From: Shigella phage ESh25
Length of the DNA stretch: 64,000 nucleotides
Sequence record: ON528735
Direction: 5' to 3' (one strand)
The notes beneath the pieces are model-generated. The model saw nothing but the letters and a program-made list of their open reading frames with translations. It had not been told where the DNA came from and ran no database searches. Shown in pieces: positions 37,689 to 47,933 of the stretch. Position 1 is the stretch's first letter, and every line of letters begins with the position of its first letter. A program made the position numbers and the translations under genes.

Positions 37689-37696
37689 TATAAATA
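37689..37696 (+). promoter_or_regulatory. late promoter TATAAATA for gene 34
   Basis: TATAAATA 34 nt before the gene 34 ATG; divergent from the rnh early promoter. Confidence 0.6.
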
Positions 37697-37730: not shown

Positions 37731-40700
37731 ATGGCCGAGATTAAAAGAAAGTTCAGAGCAGAAGATGGTCTGGACGCAGGTGGCGATAAAATAATCAACG
37801 TAGCTTTAGCTGATCGTGCCGTAGGAACTGACGGTGTTAACGTTGATTACTTAATTCAAGAAAACACAGTTCAACAATACGATCCAACTCGTGGATATTT
37901 AAAAGATTTTGTAATCATTTATAATAATCGTTTTTGGGCAGCAACGGATAATATTCCAAAACCTGCTGGAAATTTTAATAGAATTCGTTGGAAAGCATTA
38001 CGTACTGATGCCGTATATACAACTGTATCATCTGGACCATATCAATTAAAATCCGGAGAAGCAATTTCAGTAGATACATCAGTTGGTAATGACATTGAGT
38101 TTACTTTACCACCTTCTCCGCTCGATGGAGAAACAGTAATAATTCAAGATATCGGTGGAAAACCTGGTATAAATCAGGTTAAAATAAGTTCTTCAAATCA
38201 GAGCATTGTTAATTTTAGAGGTGAACAAGTACGTTCAGTTTTAATGACTCATCCAAAGTCACAGATGATATTCATTTTTAATAATCGTTTGTGGCAAATG
38301 TATGTTGCTGATTATAGCAGAGAAGCTGCAATTGTTACTCCATCGACTGCATATCAAGCACAATCTAATGATTTTATCGTGCGTAGATTTACTTCCGCAG
38401 CGCCGATTAATATTAAACTTCCGAGATTTGCTAATCATGGCGATATTATTAATTTCGTTGATTTAGATAAATTAAATCCACTTTATCATACAATTGTCAC
38501 GACATATGATGAAACAACTTCAGTACAAGAAGTTGGAACTCATTCCATTGAAGGCCGTACATCGATTGACGGTTTCTTGATGTTTGATGATAGTGAAAAA
38601 TTATGGAGATTGTTTGACGGGGATAGTAAAGCACGTTTACACATTATAACGACTAATTCAAACATTCGTCCAAATGAAGAAGTTATGGTATTTGGTGCGA
38701 ATAATGGAACAACTCAAACGATTGAACTTCAGCTTCCAACTAATATTTCTGTTGGTGATACTGTTAAAATTTCCATGAATTACATGAGAAAAGGACAAAC
38801 AGTTAAAATCAAAGCTGCCGGTGAAGATAAAATTGCTTCTTCAGTTCAATTGCTGCAATTCCCAAAACGCTCAGAATATCCACCTGAAGCTGAATGGGTG
38901 ACTGTTCAAGAATTAGTTTTTAACGGTGAAACTAATTATGTTCCAGTTTTACAGCTTGCTTATATTGAAGATTCTGACGGAAAATACTGGGTAGTACAAC
39001 AAAACGTTCCAACAGTTGAAAGAGTCGATTCTTTAAATAATTCTACTAGAGCAAGATTAGGCGTAATTGCTTTAGCTACACAAGCCCAAGCTAACGTCGA
39101 TTTAGAAAATTCTCCACAAAAAGAATTAGCAATTACTCCAGAAACATTAGCTAACCGTACTGCTACAGAAACTCGTAGAGGTATCGCAAGAATAGCAACT
39201 ACTGCTCAAGTAAATCAGAACACTACATTCTCTTTTGCTGATGACCTTATCATCACTCCTAAAAAGCTGAATGAAAGAACTGCTACAGAAACTCGTAGAG
39301 GTGTTGCTGAAATTGCTACGCAGCAGGAAACTAATACAGGTATCGATGATACTACAATCATCACTCCTAAAAAGCTTCAAGCTCGTCAAGGTTCTGAATC
39401 ATTATCAGGTATTGTAACTTTTGTATCTACCGCAGGAGCTACCCCAGCTTCTAGTCGTGAATTAAATGGTACAAATGTTTACAATAAAAACACTAATAAT
39501 TTAGTTGTTTCGCCTAAAGCACTGGATCAGTATAAAGCTACTCCAACACAGCAAGGTGCAGTAATTTTAGCAGTTGAAAGTGAAGTAATTGCTGGACAAA
39601 GCCAAGAAGGATGGGCAAATGCGGTTGTAACGCCAGAAACGTTACATAAAAAGACATCAACTGATGGAAGAATTGGTTTAATTGAAATTGCTACGCAAAG
39701 TGAAGTTAATACAGGAACTGATTATACTCGCGCAGTCACTCCTAAAACTTTAAATGACCGTAGAGCAACTGAAAGTTTAAGTGGTATAGCTGAAATTGCT
39801 ACACAAGTTGAATTCGACGCAGGCGTCGACGATACTCGTATCTCTACACCATTAAAAATTAAAACTAGATTTAATAGTACTGATCGTACTTCTGTTGTTG
39901 CTCTATCTGGATTAGTTGAATCAGGAACTCTCTGGGACCATTATACCCTTAATATTCTTGAAGCAAATGAGACACAACGTGGTACACTTCGTGTAGCTAC
40001 ACAAGTTGAAGCTGCTGCAGGAAAATTAGATAATGTTTTAATAACTCCTAAAAAGCTTTTAGGTACTAAATCTACCGAATCGCAAGAAGGTGTTATTAAA
40101 GTTGCAACTCAGTCTGAAACCGTGACTGGAACGTCAGCAAATACTGCTGTATCTCCAAAAAATTTAAAATGGATTGTGCAGAGTGAACCTACTTGGGCAG
40201 CTACTACTGCGATAAGAGGTTTTGTTAAAACCTCATCTGGTTCAATTACGTTCGTTGGTAATGATACAGCTGGTTCTACGCAGGACTTAGAACTATATGA
40301 GAAAAATGGTTATGCAGTATCACCATATGAATTAAACCGTGTATTAGCAAATTATTTGCCGTTAAAAGCAAAAGCTGCTGACGCAAATTTATTAGATGGT
40401 CTAGATTCATCTCAGTTCATTCGTAGGGATATTGCCCAGACAGTTAATGGTTCACTAACCTTAACCAAACAAACGAACCTGAGTGCCCCTCTTGTATCAT
40501 CTAGTACTGCTACGTTTGGTGGATCAGTTTCAGCAAATAGTACACTAACTATTTCTAATACTGGAACGGCAACTCGTCTGATTTTTGAAAAAGGACCTCA
40601 AACTGGGACGAACCCAGCTCAAACGATGACAGTCAGAGTGTGGGGAAATCAATTTAGCGGGGAATCAGACACAACACGTTCTACCGTATTTGAAGTTAGT

Positions 40701-41600
40701 GATGAAACGTCTAGTCATTTTTATTCTCAGCGTAATAAAGCTGGAAATATAACATTTAATATCAACGGCACAGTAACACCGATAAATGTTAATGCTTCAG
40801 GAACATTGAATGCAAATGGTGTAGCAACATTTGGTAATTCAGTCACTGCAACTGGTGAAATTATTTCTCGAAGCGCAAATGCTTTCCGTGCTATTAACGG
40901 AAATTATGGTTTCATTGTTCGCAATGATGGATCAGTAACGAATTTTATGCTTACTGCATCGGGTGATCAGACTGGCGGATTTAATGGATTGCGTCCTTTA
41001 GCTATTAATAATGCATCTGGCCAAGTAACGATTGGTGAAAGCTTAATCATTGCAAAAGGTGCTACTATAAGTTCAGGCGGTTTAACTGTTAACTCGAGAA
41101 TTCGCTCTCAAGGTACTAAAACTTCTGATTTATACACTCGCGCACCAACATCTGATACAGTAGGATTCTGGTCAATTGATATTAACGATTCAGCCACTTA
41201 TAATCAATTCCCTGGTTATTTTAAAATGGTTGAAAAAACTAATGAAGTGACTGGACTTCCATACTTAGAACGTGGTGAAGAAGTTAAATCTCCTGGTACA
41301 TTGACTCAGTTTGGTAACACACTTGATTCACTTTACCAAGATTGGATTACTTATCCAACGACCCCAGAAGCACGTACCACTCGCTGGACACGTACATGGC
41401 AGAAAACTAAAAATTCTTGGTCAAGTTTTGTTCAGGTATTTGACGGAGGTAACCCTCCTCAACCTTCAGATATAGGAGCGATCCCATCTGATAATGGAAT
41501 AATAGGTAATCTTACTATTCGCGATTTCTTGCGAATTGGTAATGTTCGCATTATTCCTGACCCAGTGAATAAAACTGTTAAATTTGAGTGGATTGAATAA
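37731..41600 (+). CDS. 34: long tail fibre proximal subunit gp34
   Basis: 1289 aa, same as T4 gp34; internal repeats of a TPExL/TPKKL...ATE(T/S) motif. Confidence 0.9.
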   Translation: MAEIKRKFRAEDGLDAGGDKIINVALADRAVGTDGVNVDYLIQENTVQQYDPTRGYLKDFVIIYNNRFWAATDNIPKPAGNFNRIRWKALRTDAVYTTVSSGPYQLKSGEAISVDTSVGNDIEFTLPPSPLDGETVIIQDIGGKPGINQVKISSSNQSIVNFRGEQVRSVLMTHPKSQMIFIFNNRLWQMYVADYSREAAIVTPSTAYQAQSNDFIVRRFTSAAPINIKLPRFANHGDIINFVDLDKLNPLYHTIVTTYDETTSVQEVGTHSIEGRTSIDGFLMFDDSEKLWRLFDGDSKARLHIITTNSNIRPNEEVMVFGANNGTTQTIELQLPTNISVGDTVKISMNYMRKGQTVKIKAAGEDKIASSVQLLQFPKRSEYPPEAEWVTVQELVFNGETNYVPVLQLAYIEDSDGKYWVVQQNVPTVERVDSLNNSTRARLGVIALATQAQANVDLENSPQKELAITPETLANRTATETRRGIARIATTAQVNQNTTFSFADDLIITPKKLNERTATETRRGVAEIATQQETNTGIDDTTIITPKKLQARQGSESLSGIVTFVSTAGATPASSRELNGTNVYNKNTNNLVVSPKALDQYKATPTQQGAVILAVESEVIAGQSQEGWANAVVTPETLHKKTSTDGRIGLIEIATQSEVNTGTDYTRAVTPKTLNDRRATESLSGIAEIATQVEFDAGVDDTRISTPLKIKTRFNSTDRTSVVALSGLVESGTLWDHYTLNILEANETQRGTLRVATQVEAAAGKLDNVLITPKKLLGTKSTESQEGVIKVATQSETVTGTSANTAVSPKNLKWIVQSEPTWAATTAIRGFVKTSSGSITFVGNDTAGSTQDLELYEKNGYAVSPYELNRVLANYLPLKAKAADANLLDGLDSSQFIRRDIAQTVNGSLTLTKQTNLSAPLVSSSTATFGGSVSANSTLTISNTGTATRLIFEKGPQTGTNPAQTMTVRVWGNQFSGESDTTRSTVFEVSDETSSHFYSQRNKAGNITFNINGTVTPINVNASGTLNANGVATFGNSVTATGEIISRSANAFRAINGNYGFIVRNDGSVTNFMLTASGDQTGGFNGLRPLAINNASGQVTIGESLIIAKGATISSGGLTVNSRIRSQGTKTSDLYTRAPTSDTVGFWSIDINDSATYNQFPGYFKMVEKTNEVTGLPYLERGEEVKSPGTLTQFGNTLDSLYQDWITYPTTPEARTTRWTRTWQKTKNSWSSFVQVFDGGNPPQPSDIGAIPSDNGIIGNLTIRDFLRIGNVRIIPDPVNKTVKFEWIE

Positions 41601-41608
41601 GAGGTATT

Positions 41609-42724
41609 ATGGAAAAATTTATGGCAGAGTTTGGACAAGGATATGTCCAAACGCCATTTTTATCGGAAAGCAATTCAGTAAGATATAAAATAAGCATAGC
41701 GGGTTCTTGCCCGCTTTCTACTGCGGGACCATATGTTAAATTTCAGGATAATCCCGTTGGAAATCAAACATTTAGTGCAGGTCTTCATTTAAGAGTTTTT
41801 GACCCTTCTACGGGAGCATTAGTTGATAGCAAGTCATATGCTTTTTCTGCTTCAAACAATACAACATCTGCCGCTTTTGTCAGTTTCATGAATTCTTTGT
41901 CAAACAATAGACTTGTTGCTATATTAACTAGCGGAAAGGTTAATTTTCCTCCTGAAGTGGTATCTTGGTTAAGGGGAGCAGGAACTTCAGTTTTTCCATC
42001 AGATTCAGTATTGTCAAGATTTGACGTGTCATATGCTGCTTTTTACACTTCTTCTAAAAGAGCTATCGCATTAGAGCATGTTAAACTAAGTAATAGAAAA
42101 AGCACAGATGACTATCAAACTATGTTAGATGTTGTATTTGATAGTTTAGAAGACGTCGGAGCTACAGGATTTCCTAAAAGAACATACGAAAGCGTTGAGC
42201 AATTTATGTCTGCGGTTGGAGGAACTAATAATGAAATTGCGCGATTGCCAACTTCAGCTGCTATAAGTAAACTTTCTGACTACAATTTAATTCCTGGTGA
42301 TGTTCTTTATCTTAAAGCACAACTATATGCTGATGCTGATTTACTTGATCTTGGAACTACAAATATATCTATTCGTTTTTATGATGCATCAAATGGATAT
42401 ATTTCCTCGACCCAAGCTGAGTTTACTGGGCAAGCTGGGTCTTGGGAATTAAAAGAAGATTATGTAGTTGTTCCTGAAAATGCAGTAGGATTTACGATAT
42501 ATGCACAAAGAACTGCCCAAGCAGGTCAAGGCGGCATGAGAAATTTAAGCTTTTCTGAAGTATCAAGAAATGGCGGCATTTCAAAACCTGCCGAATTTGG
42601 CGTCAACGGTATTCGCGTTAATTATGTCTGCGAATCGGCTTCACCTCCAGATATAATGGTACTTCCTACACAAGCCTCTTCTAAAACTGGCAAAGTGTTT
42701 GGGCAAGAATTTAGAGAAGTTTAA
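41609..42724 (+). CDS. 35: long tail fibre hinge protein gp35
   Basis: 371 aa (T4 372 aa). Confidence 0.85.
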   Translation: MEKFMAEFGQGYVQTPFLSESNSVRYKISIAGSCPLSTAGPYVKFQDNPVGNQTFSAGLHLRVFDPSTGALVDSKSYAFSASNNTTSAAFVSFMNSLSNNRLVAILTSGKVNFPPEVVSWLRGAGTSVFPSDSVLSRFDVSYAAFYTSSKRAIALEHVKLSNRKSTDDYQTMLDVVFDSLEDVGATGFPKRTYESVEQFMSAVGGTNNEIARLPTSAAISKLSDYNLIPGDVLYLKAQLYADADLLDLGTTNISIRFYDASNGYISSTQAEFTGQAGSWELKEDYVVVPENAVGFTIYAQRTAQAGQGGMRNLSFSEVSRNGGISKPAEFGVNGIRVNYVCESASPPDIMVLPTQASSKTGKVFGQEFREV

Positions 42725-42729
42725 ACTGA

Positions 42730-42763
42730 GGGAGCCTTCGGGTTCCCTTTTTCTTTATAAATA
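42730..42763 (+). promoter_or_regulatory. hairpin terminator after gene 35 followed by late promoter TATAAATA (42756-42763) for genes 36-37
   Basis: Imperfect GGGAGCC-UUCG-GGUUCCC stem plus T-run, then TATAAATA 24 nt before the gene 36 ATG. Confidence 0.5.
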
Positions 42764-42786: not shown

Positions 42787-43437
42787 ATGGCTGATTTAAA
42801 AGTAGGTTCAACTGTAGGTGGATCTGTCATTTGGCATCAAGGAAATTTTCCATTGAATTCAGCCGGTGACGATGTACTCTACAAATCATTTAAAATATAT
42901 TCAGAATATAATAAACCGCAGGCAGCTGATAACGATTTCGTTTCTAAAGCTAATGGTGGTACTTACACCGGTCCAATTACTATTAATTACGGGGTAAATA
43001 GTTATCTTCAATTAAGTAATAATGAAACCCCCATTCGAATTCGTTCTGGTGGCGGTACCGGTAATACTCTTGTAGTTGGTGGCTCTTCCGGCGGTATTAG
43101 TTTTAGACCTGCAGGTAGTGAAATCACTACTGGACAAATTACTATTACACCAGAAGGTTTGACAACATTTACCAGGGCTGTAACGGCTCCATCTGTAACT
43201 GTTACATCTACTCCTTCCGCAGCATCTGATGTTACTCGTAAAGATTATGTTGATGGAGCAATAAATACTGTTACAACAAATGCAAACTCTAGGGTATTAC
43301 GCTCTGGAGACACTATGACAGGAAATTTAACTGCGCCAAACCTTTTTTCACAGAATCCTGCATCTCAACCTTCACACGTTCCACGATTTGACCAAATCGT
43401 AATTAAGGATTCTGTTCAAGATTTCGGCTATTATTAA
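42787..43437 (+). CDS. 36: long tail fibre distal connector gp36
   Basis: 216 aa; position between 35 and 37. Confidence 0.85.
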
Positions 43438-43445
43438 GAGGACTT

Positions 43446-46412
43446 ATGGCTACTTTAAAACAAATACAATTTAAAAGAAGCAAAACTGCAGGTCAACGTC
43501 CTGCTGCTTCAGTATTAGCCGAAGGTGAATTGGCTATAAACTTAAAAGATAAAACAATTTTCACAAAAGATGACTCAGGTAGTGTTATAGAATTAGGTTT
43601 AAAATATGGAGGAACAATTGATGGTTCTTTAACTGTTAATGGAAATATAATTGGAAATTTAACAGGTAACGCTGCAACTGCAACGAAATTAAAAACAGCA
43701 CGAAAAATTAATGGTATATCCTTTGATGGGTCAAAGGATATCACGCTAACTCCATCTGACATAAATGTCAATAGCACAACATTTATAAAAAATAATGGCG
43801 AATTACCTGTTGATGCTAATTTAGATGAGTATGGGCCTGTTGAAGAATATCTTGGTGTTTGGTCGAAAGCAACTTCAACCAACGCTCAACCAGCAAATAA
43901 ATTTCCAGAAGAAAATGCTGTAGGTGTGCTAGAAGTATTTGTGGCCGGTCAATTTGCTGGTACTCAGAGATATACAACTAGATACGGAAATGTTTATATT
44001 CGTTCCTTGACTGCTACATGGAACGGAGTAAATGGTCCGTGGAGTGTGTGGCGAAATATTCAATCCGGTACTCGTCCACTGTCAACAACAATTGATCTTA
44101 ATGATCTAGGAGGCGCTGAACACTTTGGTTTGTGGCGAAATAGTTCAAATTCTATTGCTACCTTTGACAGAAATTTCCCAGAAGAGGGGTCGTCAGCTCA
44201 AGGACTTTTAGAAGTATATGAAGGTGGAAACTATTCTCGCACACAGAGATATACGACCAGATTTGGTGTTGTTTATACTCGCTGTCTTGCTGCTGCGTGG
44301 GATGCTTCTGCGCCTAAATGGGGACCGTGGCAACAAGTCGGTAATGTCACACCAGCGACTTTTTATGATGGAGATCTGAATGATTTTAAAACTCCTGGGT
44401 TATATAATATTTTAGGCACTGATGCCGTTATTAACTGTCCTACCGGTGAAGGTTTGCCGACTGTTATTGTTGGTTTGCTGGAAGTTAAACAGCGTGCTTC
44501 TGGCGGTGCTATTTTCCAAAAATTTACTACTGCCGGAACGGGTGCAACTACCCGCGATCGTATTTTTGAGCGCGCATATACCGGCGGTGTTTGGGGTGCA
44601 TGGAACGAAGTATATACATCTTATTCTCTGCCAATTACTTTGGGTATGGGTGGTATTAAAGCTCAATTAGCGGAGTTAGATTGGCAAACCTTTGATTTTG
44701 TCCCTGGTAGTATGTTTAGCGTTCCTTTGAATAAAATAAAGAACATGCCAGCAAATATGGATTGGGGGACGATTGATGGAAACTTGGTTATGTTTTCTGT
44801 CGGTCCTAGCGAACATACTAGCACAGGGCGCACTGTTCAGGTTTGGCGCGGTACTGTATCCCAGACAAACTACCGTTATTTTGTCGTTCGTGTATTCGGT
44901 AATTCAGGAAATAGAACTTGCACAGTTCGTCGTGTTGTTCTTGAAGATGGTCGCCACAAATGGACAGCGCAGCAAGATTTTAATGGCGCAGTTAACTTCG
45001 GTGCTGCAACCACGTTTAAATCAACTACAACTTTTAATACAGAAGTTAAATTTCGCGCATTGAATGCGTTCCGCCTGTATGGCGGAAAATTTGGTACATT
45101 TTTCCGTAATGATGGAGAGAGTCTTTATATTCTTTCCACCGACGAAGATGATCAAGATGGAAACTTTAATACAAATAGACCTTTCCGTTATGAATTGAGA
45201 ACTGGTGATGTTACTTTAGGTGGTACTAGTGGTGCTAACGTTTTAAAATTAAAACGTGATTCTCTCACCGCATTTTTTGGTGGTGATATTAATATAAAAG
45301 GCTTGATGACTTTTGACGCCGGACGTTTAGGATCACGAGATTATTTTAAATTTAACCATTGGGGTGATAGTAATAATGCGCGTGATAACATTATTCAGTT
45401 AGAAGACAGCAAAGGAGTTCATTTTTCTACTGAACGTACTTTAGCGACTGGTGCAATTAAAACTAAATTCTTTGGTGAAGTTGAATCCGATGGTAGATTG
45501 ATTATTAAACGTCCGGGTGATTCTATTGTATTATCAGCACCTGCTAGTAATTCTTTGCATATTCGTGGTGACGTAGACGGTACTAATAACTGGTATATTG
45601 GTAAGGGTGGTGATGATAATGGATTAGCGTTCTATAGTTATGCTACTAATGCTGGTGTATACATTACAAACGCAGGGGATATCACGCTAAGTCCAAAAGG
45701 CGTCGAAATGGCTCATGTTAATAACGTTCGATTATATGTTCATGGTGAACGTTGGACCGCTAGTCAACCAGGTGATTGGGGCAACCAATGGCGAGTAGAA
45801 GCGCCAATATTCGTCGATCATGGTTATGTTGGATCAGATAGCTATTATCCAATTATTAAAGGAAGAAGTGTAGTCACCAATCAAGGGTTTGTAACTGCCG
45901 TCGATCTTGGTATTCGTCGTATCCCTAATAATTGGGGACAAGCAATTATTCGTGTTGGATCTGCGGAGGCTTCTCCTGATGCTGGTCATCCTAACGCGAT
46001 ATTCGAGTTCCACTATGATGGGTTCTTTTACGCACCAGGAAATGGAAATTTTAATGATGTGTATATTCGTTCCGATGGTCGTCTTAAGATTAATAAAAAA
46101 GAGCTAGAAAACGGAGCGGTTGAAAAAGTTTGCCGACTGAAAGTTTATACTTACGATAAAGTTAAGTCTATTAAAGACCGTAGTGTTATTAAACATGAAG
46201 TTGGTATTATTGCGCAGGATCTTGAAAAGGAATTGCCGGAAGCTGTATCTAAAGTTGAAGTTGATGGATCTGATGTTTTGACAATTTCTAACTCTGCTGT
46301 GAATGCTCTTTTAATTAAGGCCATTCAGGAAATGAGCGAAGAAATTAAAGAATTGAAAACACCTTTCTTCACTAAAATTGCTCGTAAAATTAGCAATTAT
46401 TTTAAATTCTAA
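43446..46412 (+). CDS. 37: long tail fibre distal subunit gp37, T2/T6-type with C-terminal intramolecular-chaperone-like domain
   Basis: 988 aa; T4-like N-terminus [13 protein letters not shown]; C-terminus carries [15 protein letters not shown]...[11 protein letters not shown], which resembles the auto-cleaving chaperone domain of phage fibres; no His-rich tip. Confidence 0.9.
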
Positions 46413-46417
46413 CAACA

Positions 46418-46430
46418 AGGGGCTTTGCCC
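46418..46430 (+). other. GC hairpin GGGGC-UUU-GCCCC between genes 37 and 38, just upstream of the gene 38 Shine-Dalgarno
   Basis: Stem-loop followed by TTTGGAGAAAATTATG. Confidence 0.4.
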
Positions 46431-46444
46431 CTTTGGAGAAAATT

Positions 46445-47245
46445 ATGGCAGTAGTTGGTGTTCCTGGTTGGATTGGAAGTTCATCCGTAAATGAAACAGG
46501 ACAACGATGGATGAGTCAAGCGGCTGGTCAATTAAGATTGGGTATTCCTTGCTGGATGAGTCAATTTGCAGGTCGCTCAAGAGAAATTATTCACACGCTT
46601 GGAGCAGACCATAACTTCAATGGTCAATGGTTCCGAGATAGATGTTTTGAGGCAGGTAGTGCACCTATAGTGTTTAATATCACAGGAAATTTGGTATCAT
46701 ATTCTAGAGATGTTCCTTTATTCTTCATGTATGGAGATACACCAAATGAATATGTTCAGTTGAATATTAGCGGTGGAGCTCATATGTGGGGCAGAGGTGG
46801 ACAAGGTGGATGGACTCATTCTGGTGGAGATGGTAATGGTCAACAGGGTGGACATTGTATTCAAAATGACATTGGTGGTCGGTTAAGAATTAATAATGGT
46901 GGAGTAATTTGTGGCGGAGGAGGCGGTGGCGGCGGTATCGCTTATCGTCCTCACTCTGGTGCAAACTGGCAAGATATTGGTGGCGGTGGAGGAAGACCGT
47001 TTGGCCCAGGAGGTGGCGGTGGTTATTCAGGAGGTGCTGCTTCTTATGATGGCCCAGGAGGTGGTTATAATTATGGTATTGCTCACTCTGGTCAAGGTGG
47101 CGATGCTGGAGGAAATGGACAAAATGCCTGGCATGATGGTGGTAAAGTTCTAAAAGTTGGCGCTGGCGGGGCGGCAGGTTATGCTGTAATAGGGTCTGCT
47201 CCAACATGGCAAAATGTTGGAATAATATATGGTCCAAGAGTATAA
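46445..47245 (+). CDS. 38: gp38 receptor-recognising adhesin (T2-type, glycine-rich motifs flanking variable segments)
   Basis: 266 aa from MAVVGVPGW; polyglycine runs GGGGGGGG, GGGGG, GGGGG separated by short variable segments. Confidence 0.85.
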
Positions 47246-47276
47246 TTTTGAATAAATACCCTTAAAAGGAGGGTCT

Positions 47277-47933
47277 ATGACAGCACCTAGAATATCATTT
47301 TCGCCCTCTGGTATTCTGTTTGGTGTTCTAGATCGCTTGTTCAAAGATAACGCTACCGGGAAGGTTCTTGCTTCCCGGGTAGCTGTCGTAATTCTTTTGT
47401 TTATAATGGCGATTGTTTGGTATAGGGGAGATAGTTTCTTTGAGTACTATAAGCAATCAAAGTATGAAACATACAGTGAAATTATTGAAAAGGAAAGAAA
47501 TGCACGCTTTGAATCTGTCGCCCTGGAACAACTCCAGATAGTTCATATATCATCTGAGGCAGACTTTAGTGCGGTGTATTCTTTCCGCCCTAAAAACTTA
47601 AACTATTTTGTTGATATTATAGCATATGAAGGAAAATTACCTTCAACAATAAGTGAAAAATCACTTGGAGGATATCCTGTTGATAAAACTATGGATGAAT
47701 ATGCAGTTCATTTAAATGGACGTCATTATTATTCAAACTCAAAATTTGCTTTTTTACCAACTAAAAAGCCTACTCCCGAAATAAATTACATGTACAGTTG
47801 TCCATATTTTAATTTGGATAATATCTATGCTGGAACAATAACCATGTACTGGTATAGAAATGATCATATAAGTAATGACCGCCTTGAATCAATATGTGCT
47901 CAGGCGGCCAGAATATTAGGAAGGGCTAAATAA
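47277..47933 (+). CDS. t: holin
   Basis: 218 aa, same as T4 T holin; single N-terminal transmembrane helix and large periplasmic domain. Confidence 0.9.
   Translation: MTAPRISFSPSGILFGVLDRLFKDNATGKVLASRVAVVILLFIMAIVWYRGDSFFEYYKQSKYETYSEIIEKERNARFESVALEQLQIVHISSEADFSAVYSFRPKNLNYFVDIIAYEGKLPSTISEKSLGGYPVDKTMDEYAVHLNGRHYYSNSKFAFLPTKKPTPEINYMYSCPYFNLDNIYAGTITMYWYRNDHISNDRLESICAQAARILGRAK

Follow-up and report, generated by a model that had tools for sequence, protein, structure and literature searches.

What kind of receptor-binding tip do genes 37 and 38 of Shigella phage ESh25 encode, and which host receptor is it likely to recognize? The window analyzed here, that is, the whole 64,000-nucleotide stretch of DNA (sequence record ON528735), has a Tequatrovirus backbone with ~96% identity to many sequenced phages, in line with the T4-like backbone proposed in a first-pass annotation. 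In this analysis we established the open reading frames, the domain homologies, the gp38 fold, the mosaic boundaries, and the near identity of gp38 to characterized adhesins. It is very probable that the two genes specify the receptor-binding distal tip of a Tequatrovirus long tail fiber in its T6-like form, in which an autocleaved gp37 would be capped by gp38 and the receptor would most likely be OmpA.

The boundaries of the module were read from a sliding DNA identity profile and from gp37 identities calculated per 50 amino acids. DNA identity to T4 and T2 is zero from the 43600 bin on, remains absent to about 47200, and is back at 97 to 100% from 47400 on, within gene t (47277..47933, + strand), the holin gene (PF11031, E 1e-116) that marks the right edge. 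The left edge is formed by the N-terminal ~67 amino acids of gp37 (43446..43646, + strand), which join gp36. BLASTP aligns residues 1 to 66/67 only (79% identity to T4, 76% to T2), and this is the only stretch that gp37 has in common with its T4 and T2 counterparts, the C-terminal intramolecular chaperone (IMC) domain aside in the case of T2. The profile bears out the mosaic host-range cassette that had been proposed from the sequence, but the accompanying label “T2/T6-type” holds only in part. Judged by sequence, gp37 (91% amino acid identity to T6 gp37) and the attachment domain of gp38 are T6-type. T2 shows no DNA similarity over 43600 to 47200 and T2 gp37 matches only at the N terminus and the IMC, and therefore we rejected the T2 designation. 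The receptor-binding half of gp38 is instead of the RB32/AV119 type: across 46600 to 47200, DNA identity to T6 falls from 94% to 72, 36, and 16%, while identity to Jbel rises from 27% to 89 to 94%. The module thus reads as a recombinational patchwork whose pieces have already been seen in other sequenced phages. No single record matches it throughout; ES12 comes closest in gene 38 and in the 5′ half of gene 37, and PBM-1 and EPIMAM01 come closest in the 3′ half of the latter gene, the whole 3.8-kb segment showing 96% DNA identity to the nearest sequenced modules (ES12/ES26, PBM-1, and EPIMAM01). GC content over 44000 to 47500 is 0.42 to 0.45, compared with 0.32 to 0.39 in most flanking bins, and the rise coincides with the exchanged module; because Gly codons account for at least part of it, it was not counted as a sign of foreign origin.

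Upstream of the module lies gene 36 (42787..43437, + strand), a 216-amino-acid open reading frame with a PF03903 (Phage_T4_gp36) match, for which gp36 is annotated at the equivalent position in RB32, T6, and T4; it encodes the distal hinge connector, the attachment site of gp37. An exact match to the T4-type late promoter motif, TATAAATA (42756..42763, + strand), precedes gene 36 and is the likely start of a 36-37-38 transcript, so that the three genes would probably be transcribed late from it. The assignment is made from position because the number of such motifs in the whole window (11 found versus 9.4 expected) is not above chance. The exact-match scan found no motif of this type immediately upstream of either gene 37 or gene 38. 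A stem-loop between genes 37 and 38 was considered as a terminator and discarded, its folding energy being ordinary (z −1.6) and the terminator scan making no call there. Scans of the whole window for tRNAs and Rfam families returned no matches.

Gene 37 (43446..46412, + strand) would be translated as a 988-amino-acid precursor of the distal long tail fiber subunit, and both this length and the 266 amino acids given for gp38 were recovered as open reading frames on the + strand. Over its full length, gp37 is 91% identical to the T6 protein and 97% identical to the PBM-1 and EPIMAM01 proteins, and an exact-sequence look-up found an identical gp37 on one 9.5-kb Logan contig, SRR27217509_941. Compared with T6 (MH550421), with which the locus shares the gene order 34-35-36-37-38-t, gp37 lacks 6 amino acids after residue 526 (988 versus 994 amino acids). 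The RB32 protein is more distant: it has 1,027 amino acids and is only 70% identical, and identity in the tip region is 16 to 56% over amino acids 651 to 850. The shaft contains a Gp34_trimer-like fiber domain (amino acids 514 to 581; 44985..45188, + strand; PF21446, E 2e-12), and residues 512 to 593 match the solved T4 gp34 fragments 5nxh and 4uxe.

The C terminus of gp37 had been likened to the autocleaving chaperone domains of phage fibers, and the strings quoted for it are present in the protein. Residues 876 to 934 match Peptidase_S74 (PF13884; E 1.3e-10, 41.8 bits against a Pfam cut-off of 22), and the match begins at profile position 1 and spans positions 1 to 57 of 58. The motif DVYIR^SDGRLK (the caret marks the predicted cut) retains both Ser876 and Lys881, which we take to be the nucleophile and the base, respectively, roles assigned after work on the endosialidase IMC. 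The sequence thus identifies the C terminus as an S74-type IMC with an intact Ser/Lys motif (amino acids 876 to 988; 46071..46409, + strand); its terminal position and its length of 113 amino acids (~100 to 120 expected) agree with this assignment, as do alignments to the S16 gp37 chain 6f45_A (E 1.3e-5) and to the tail fiber 8jov_1 (E 0.003). SDxRxK is found in gp37 of T6, T2, RB32, S16, and Jbel and is absent from that of T4, and S-D-x-R-x-K, with the Lys five residues after the Ser, is conserved in all nine T2/T6/S16-type gp37 proteins examined; T6 has the site as DVYIR^SDxRLK, likewise followed by a 113-amino-acid IMC. Nor does the protein end in a His-rich T4 tip, as had been pointed out: its last 150 residues contain 3 His residues and no HxH, compared with 14 His residues and 7 HxH motifs in T4 gp37. 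The last 113 residues would form a chaperone that helps three chains to fold into a fiber and is then released by cleaving itself just upstream of Ser876, Lys881 acting as the base, which would leave an 875-amino-acid mature gp37 that ends in DVYIR and an exposed trimer tip. This cleavage is extrapolated from relatives. In S16, the last 113 residues of gp37 are autocleaved at DLNVS^SDRRIKK, a site that has been aligned to exactly DVYIR^SDGRLKI of Tequatroviruses and discussed as both the cleavage site and the gp38 docking strand (PMC7917993). From the position of the motif and this precedent, DVYIR (amino acids 871 to 875; 46056..46070, + strand) is predicted to be the last strand of mature gp37 and the surface to which gp38 docks in ESh25.

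Gene 38 (46445..47245, + strand) directly follows gene 37 and precedes the holin gene t, an order also found in T6, RB32, T2, and S16. We placed its start at the ATG at 46445, rather than at the TTG at 46433 given in the open reading frame list (270 amino acids), because GGAG lies 6 nucleotides upstream of the ATG and all homologues begin with MAVVG. The 266-amino-acid product matches PF05268 (GP38; E 2e-67, 227.6 bits) and PF21721 (Gp38_N; E 3e-20, 72.2 bits), each with a cut-off of 25. The Pfam matches of genes 37 and 38 are far beyond chance and, as sequence evidence, are homology-level signals. Gly runs occupy residues 157 to 164 (eight Gly residues), 179 to 183, 189 to 193, and 205 to 207, and Gly makes up 38% of the sequence from residue 110 on. 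Among solved structures, gp38 matches 9v85 (E 7e-72) and 6f45_D (E 1.7e-48) by sequence. An AlphaFold2 model built from an 80-sequence alignment reached a pLDDT of 85.6 (single-sequence input gave 33), and a Foldseek search of the PDB with this model (E ≤ 0.001) returned only 9v85_C and 6f45_D, with target-normalized TM scores of 0.86 and 0.81; the predicted fold combines a beta-helix and a polyglycine-II sandwich, as in the solved gp38 structures. In alignments of 5, 6, and 80 sequences, five conserved glycine-rich motifs separate four hypervariable segments (HVSs), and variation is concentrated between the motifs. A BLASTP comparison with the chaperone gp38 of T4 (183 amino acids) detected no similarity (best E 0.73). 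The protein is therefore a GP38-family adhesin with polyglycine motifs and not a T4-type assembly chaperone, as the first-pass annotation had maintained on both counts.

[quoted passage not shown] Among 80 gp38 homologues, Trp9 is invariant, and Trp22 and Trp37 are at least 90% conserved. Since such Trp prongs dock into the gp37 tip (PMC7917993), the T6-type domain of ESh25 gp38, with its conserved tryptophans, may be expected to plug into its own gp37 tip, an arrangement again extrapolated from relatives.

The C-terminal half of gp38 is predicted to form the polyglycine-II sandwich, with the four HVSs protruding as receptor loops (region of glycine-rich motifs and HVSs, amino acids 116 to 245; 46790..47179, + strand; boundaries within it are our own delineation from the alignments). 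All four segments lie on the + strand. HVS1 (amino acids 123 to 134; 46811..46846) is identical in RB32, fFiEco06, AV119, and Jbel and differs in T6, T2, and S16. HVS2 (amino acids 165 to 178; 46937..46978) shows one difference each from RB32 (N174K) and AV119 (P169V) and contains an Arg-x-His-Ser-Gly-Ala stretch that has been named as OmpA contacting in type 1 adhesins (PMC12032242). HVS3 (amino acids 194 to 215; 47024..47089) has one difference from RB32 and four from AV119, and its residues 209 to 213 correspond in our numbering map to N204 to G208 of PP01 gp38, in the loop-D defined for that protein (PMC12892980). HVS4 (amino acids 226 to 240; 47120..47164) is identical to that of RB32 and Jbel and has one difference from AV119; its H230 is Tyr in PBM-1 and fFiEco06 and Ser in AV119.

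The variable segments had been expected to set receptor choice, and chimeras of RB32 gp38, which needs OmpA plus lipopolysaccharide (LPS), do place specificity in the HVS segment (PMC3157838). The gp38 of RB32/RB33 (NC_008515) has the same length of 266 amino acids, the same HVS set, and 97% identity, with 8 substitutions that include N174K and I212N. AV119 gp38, an OmpA-dependent type 1 adhesin by experiments with deletion mutants (PMC12032242), is nearly identical in its receptor-binding half, although its attachment domain is of another subtype, with 22 of the 47 residues different, and it is paired with a different, longer gp37; FL08 gp38, also of type 1, is among the homologues at 89%. 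Because the gp38 loops almost match those of RB32/RB33 and AV119, the sequence match to OmpA-dependent adhesins makes OmpA the most likely primary receptor, with some dependence on the LPS core, and this is also where the proposed alignment with the T2, T6, and S16 adhesins leads, the variable segments being readable in it. Adsorption would then proceed via OmpA, resistance would arise chiefly through loss of ompA or variation in its loops, and retargeting the phage would call for swapping the part of gene 38 that begins at about codon 48.

Three other readings of the locus were weighed, and none is probable. The T6-type gp37 and attachment domain might be taken to imply Tsx, the receptor of T6 and the commonest predicted gp38 receptor (PMC12032242); the 91% identity of gp37 and the 47 N-terminal residues of gp38, a single residue off T6, speak for it. 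However, specificity sits in the HVS region rather than in the attachment domain (PMC3157838; bioRxiv 10.64898/2026.04.02.716166), all four HVSs differ from those of T6 (10, 12, 14, and 13 differences), and T6 DNA identity across the region is only 16 to 36%, which makes Tsx a very unlikely receptor. Slightly less probable still is that the S74-like C terminus of gp37 is an uncleaved relic and that gp38 binds elsewhere. Cleavage is predicted here from the gp37 sequence, which leaves room for this view, but the catalytic residues are intact, the motif has been kept in the five phages named above despite very different upstream sequences, and gp37 processing has been reported in T2, T6, and S16. 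As for the idea that the product of gene 38 is an assembly chaperone of the T4 type and that gp37 itself bears the receptor-binding tip, the position of the gene between gene 37 and t is all that favors it; set against the adhesin Pfam families and fold, the lack of similarity to T4 gp38, and a gp37 without the His-rich T4 needle, it is almost certainly wrong.

A more serious contender, although still unlikely, leaves the architecture of an autocleaved gp37 capped by gp38 as it is and holds that one substitution in loop-D has altered binding, toward other OmpA alleles or loops or another outer membrane protein. ESh25 would then descend from an ES12-like parent and differ from it in host range. 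Codon 212 of gene 38 (47078..47080, + strand) is ATT (Ile), compared with AAT (Asn) in all close relatives, through an A-to-T change at 47079. Ile212 is the sole difference from the gp38 of ES12 and ES26 (99.6% identity to ES12) and one of only two single-nucleotide polymorphisms (SNPs) in 8,638 nucleotides compared with contig SRR27217509_941; neither the phage collection nor the gene-position index contained an identical gp38. Residue 212 aligns without gaps with residue 206 of RB51/RB68, where a single HVS3 change (RB68 Q206L) switches the receptor from OmpF to OmpW (bioRxiv 10.64898/2026.04.02.716166), and with T207 in loop-D of PP01, beside G208, a residue that crosslinks to OmpC, and the essential Y209 (PMC12892980). 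Homologues that share this HVS3 type have Asn here, except for P0001 (Thr) and P0029 (Ile). On the other hand, Ile may be neutral variation, because it occurs naturally at this column in T6-like adhesins and in P0029, a related cluster with 16 members; most single-position side-chain changes in the PP01 loops are tolerated (PMC12892980), the other three HVSs are as in OmpA-binding relatives, and a sequencing or assembly difference could account for the codon. OmpA remains the preferred receptor, but because N212I is private and lies in a receptor-switch column, the call is less certain than identities of 97 to 99.6% suggest; the N174K difference from RB32 in HVS2 is a further caveat. If N212I was selected, a polar-to-aliphatic change would again have retuned receptor or allele specificity, now in an OmpA-type adhesin, and position 212 would stand out as a site that switches specificity in gp38 subtypes generally. 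Contig SRR27217509_941 ends within gene 38, 4 nucleotides past the codon-212 SNP; taking this break as a sign of a polymorphic population would be overinterpretation, as repeats of glycine codons could equally break the assembly. A paper search found no literature on SRR27217509.

Among known systems, the S16 tip complex (PDB 6F45) shares the proposed architecture, an IMC-processed gp37 trimer capped by a gp38 composed of attachment domain, beta-helix, and polyglycine-II sandwich, with processing in ESh25 being a prediction. S16 belongs to another genus, Gelderlandvirus, its gp38 is 51% identical and has other HVSs, and its receptor is OmpC. The gp38 receptor-binding domain of PP01 (PDB 9V85), whose loop A-E map was used to place residue 212, is the best structural match (E 5.5e-26, 62% identity), but PP01 binds the OmpC of O157 and its loop sequences are unlike those of ESh25. 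T4 shares the locus, the flanking genes, and the first 66 amino acids of gp37; it differs in having a His-rich receptor needle on gp37 itself, in lacking an S74 domain there, and in encoding an unrelated chaperone as gp38. The layout of glycine-rich motifs and HVSs has been published, as have the trimming of gp37 by proteolysis and its capping by gp38. The adhesin-type module, described since the 1980s, is not new; the ESh25 version is useful mainly for annotation and adds nothing to what is known of T-even tail fibers. Most of the family has this form, adhesin-type gp38 being present in 786 phage records versus 297 for the T4 type.

The gp38 protein of ESh25 is an adhesin and not the T4 assembly chaperone, as the first-pass annotation had proposed. 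It matches the Pfam families GP38 (adhesin, PF05268; E = 2e-67) and Gp38_N (PF21721; E = 3e-20), and at the sequence level it aligns with two solved structures, the receptor-binding domain of PP01 gp38 (9v85; E = 7e-72) and S16 gp38 (6f45_D; E = 1.7e-48), whereas BLASTP finds no similarity to T4 gp38 (E = 0.73). AlphaFold prediction from the single sequence gave a pLDDT of 33; with an alignment of 80 homologues as input, the pLDDT rose to 85.6, and the only PDB matches of this second model at E ≤ 0.001 were the same two structures (target-normalised TM scores of 0.86 for 9v85 and 0.81 for 6f45_D). From residue 110 onward, glycine makes up 38% of the protein, with runs at residues 157-164, 179-183, 189-193, and 205-207. 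The polyglycine motifs said to flank variable segments are seen in the alignments as conserved Gly columns bracketing four variable stretches, a layout of glycine-rich motifs and hypervariable segments (HVS) described by Trojet et al. in 2011 (PMC3157838).

In the locus, ORFs for gene 34 (37731-41600), gene 35 (41609-42724), gene 36 (42787-43437), gene 37 (43446-46412; 988 aa), gene 38 (46445-47245; 266 aa counted from the ATG), and the holin gene t (47277-47933) are all encoded on the plus strand. Mechanical ORF calling places the start of gene 38 at a TTG (46433). Because GGAG lies six bases 5' of the ATG and every gp38 homologue begins with MAVVG, the ATG was taken as the start, and the 266-aa length originally assigned is correct. 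A GC-rich 6-bp stem-loop (46418-46432; GGGGCT TTG CCCCTT region) follows the gene 37 stop and precedes the ribosome-binding site of gene 38; its folding energy is unexceptional (z = -1.6), and a terminator scan gave no call for it. Gene 35 is followed by a terminator-like hairpin (42728-42749) and, immediately 3' and before gene 36, by the late-promoter motif TATAAATA (42756-42763); a second TATAAATA is located at 37689, 5' of gene 34.

The gp37 ORF contains the C-terminal strings from which a chaperone-like end, unlike the His-rich T4 tip, had been proposed, and that reading is borne out. Peptidase_S74, the intramolecular chaperone, matches residues 876-934, with the alignment beginning at the first position of the profile (E = 1.3e-10); the score of 41.8 bits clears the threshold of 22. 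Ser876 and Lys881 are present at its start, from which 113 residues run to the end. The SDxRxK motif occurs 99 to 117 residues before the end of gp37 in T6, T2, RB32, S16, PBM-1, EPIMAM01, fFiEco06, and Jbel, and was not found in T4 gp37. The last 150 residues contain 14 His and 7 HxH motifs in T4 gp37, versus 3 and none in ESh25. The ESh25 C terminus also aligns with the S16 gp37 chain of the tip complex 6F45 (E = 1.3e-5) and with a tail fibre, 8jov_1 (E = 0.003). S16 gp37 is autocleaved at DLNVS^SDRRIKK, which removes the last 113 residues (Salem et al. 2021, PMC7917993; 112 when counted from the motif here). The same authors aligned this site with the Tequatrovirus sequence DVYIR^SDGRLKI, which ESh25 gp37 carries exactly, and proposed the DVYIR strands as a docking surface for gp38 tryptophans. 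By analogy, we infer that ESh25 gp37 would be autocleaved as well. Processing of gp37 is also treated by Trojet et al. (PMC3157838), going back to 1986.

The backbone is T4-like, as annotated: the flanks are about 96% identical to many Tequatroviruses over 97 to 100% of their length. A 200-nt sliding DNA comparison with T4, T2, T6, Jbel, ES12, PBM-1, EPIMAM01, and RB32 shows that genes 34 to 36 are mostly 84 to 100% identical to T4 and T2, a few variable patches excepted, that bins 43600 to 47000 retain no similarity to either phage, and that identity is back at 97 to 100% in gene t. T6 identity is 72 to 100% across gene 37 and on through the first ~150 nt of gene 38, followed by 72, 36, and 16%. 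Past its conserved first part, nearly the whole of gene 37 is without similarity to Jbel, one isolated 57% bin excepted; from 46600 onward, Jbel is 89 to 94% identical. The nearest relative is ES12 for the 5' half of gene 37 and for gene 38, and PBM-1 and EPIMAM01 for the 3' half of gene 37. At the protein level, gp37 is 97% identical to PBM-1 and EPIMAM01, 91% to T6, and 70% to RB32, while the match to T4 and T2 is confined to residues 1 to 67, plus the chaperone domain for T2. The 994-aa relatives have 6 additional residues after position 526 of the ESh25 protein, which accounts for its length of 988 aa. The 47 N-terminal residues of gp38, its attachment domain, differ from T6 at 1 position and from AV119 and Jbel at 22, which places a junction between this domain and the remainder. 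Pairing of gp38 N-terminal with gp37 C-terminal subtypes is already known as a lock-and-key rule (PMC3157838). The identity profile and the gp38 junction bear out a mosaic cassette, and such mosaicism is normal for the locus. The original T2/T6-type label holds for T6, the module being T6/RB32-type, and fails for T2, to which no DNA similarity exists in the 43600 to 47000 bins.

Exchanged segments also occur outside the module. At the DNA level, a patch in gene 36 (43000-43200) resembles none of T4, T2, and Jbel and is 96 to 99% identical to T6, RB32, and ES12; because it sits between T4-matching stretches, gene 36 is itself mosaic. Likewise, gene 34 patches at 38000-38200 and 40600-41000 show 0 to 72% identity to T4 and T2 versus 92 to 99% to T6, PBM-1, and ES12; segments of the proximal fibre gene have thus been exchanged as well.

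The module is a textbook feature, and near-identical copies have already been sequenced. By tblastn, 786 phage records carry the adhesin type and 297 the T4 chaperone type; the adhesin was described as the predominant form by Trojet et al. (PMC3157838). Over its full 3.8 kb, the segment shares 96% identity with PBM-1, EPIMAM01, ES12, and ES26, and the exact gp37 is present on a public Logan contig (SRR27217509_941). This E. coli-type gene 37-38 module is also found at full length (91.9% identity) in a record named Pseudomonas phage PsgM02F (OR584013.1; 132048-135849). Its host label, Pseudomonas coronafaciens, is an unexpected one for a Tequatrovirus that has an enterobacterial porin adhesin.

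Judging from the adhesin sequence, OmpA is the best prediction for the receptor. The RB32 and RB33 gp38 proteins are 97% identical to that of ESh25; both phages require OmpA and are affected by LPS composition, and RB5xRB32 chimeras locate the trait in the four-HVS segment (PMC3157838). OmpA dependence was also shown for the "type 1" phages AV119 and FL08 (Lutz et al. 2025, PMC12032242). Compared with ESh25, AV119 gp38 has the same HVS1, and its HVS2, HVS3, and HVS4 contain 1, 4, and 1 differences, respectively. T6, which uses Tsx, differs strongly from ESh25 in all four. The OmpA contacts named for AV119 gp38, R165-A170 and D217 (PMC12032242), correspond to R168-A173 and D220 in ESh25, and all are kept except P169 (Val in AV119).

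Over 8638 nt, only two SNPs separate the Logan contig from ESh25. At 38641, contig G is A in ESh25, changing gp34 codon 304 from CGC to CAC (R304H); ES12 and ESh25 are 100% identical in the 38600 bin, so this allele is shared and not private. At 47079, contig A is T, changing gp38 codon 212 (47078-47080) from AAT to ATT (N212I). Asn is present at this position in ES12, PBM-1, RB32, fFiEco06, Jbel, AV119, and the contig, and no identical gp38 was found in the phage collection or by exact-sequence look-up. N212I may be a substitution that affects host range, or it may be neutral. Residue 212 lies within HVS3 and maps to T207 of PP01 loop-D (N204-Y209), in which the adjoining G208 crosslinks to OmpC and Y209 is essential. 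Aligned without gaps across the stretch flanked by the conserved PG and GGD anchors, residue 212 also shares a column with residue 206 of RB51/RB68 gp38, where Q206L switches the receptor from OmpF to OmpW (bioRxiv 10.64898/2026.04.02.716166). As for variation in this column, Ile is also present in T6-like adhesins, and among 79 cluster representatives the subgroup that shares the ESh25 HVS3 type carries Asn, the exceptions being P0001 (Thr) and P0029 (Ile). N212I makes the OmpA prediction slightly less certain.

The contig stops inside gene 38 at the end of the 8638-nt shared stretch (47083 in ESh25), 4 nt past the N212I site. A mixed population could account for this, or just breakage of the assembly by glycine-codon repeats. 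In the RefSeq record of RB68 (NC_027979), gp38 codon 206 encodes Gln, whereas Leu206 is what distinguishes RB68 from RB51 according to the 2026 preprint (bioRxiv 10.64898/2026.04.02.716166); the deposited record and the stock studied therefore appear to differ.
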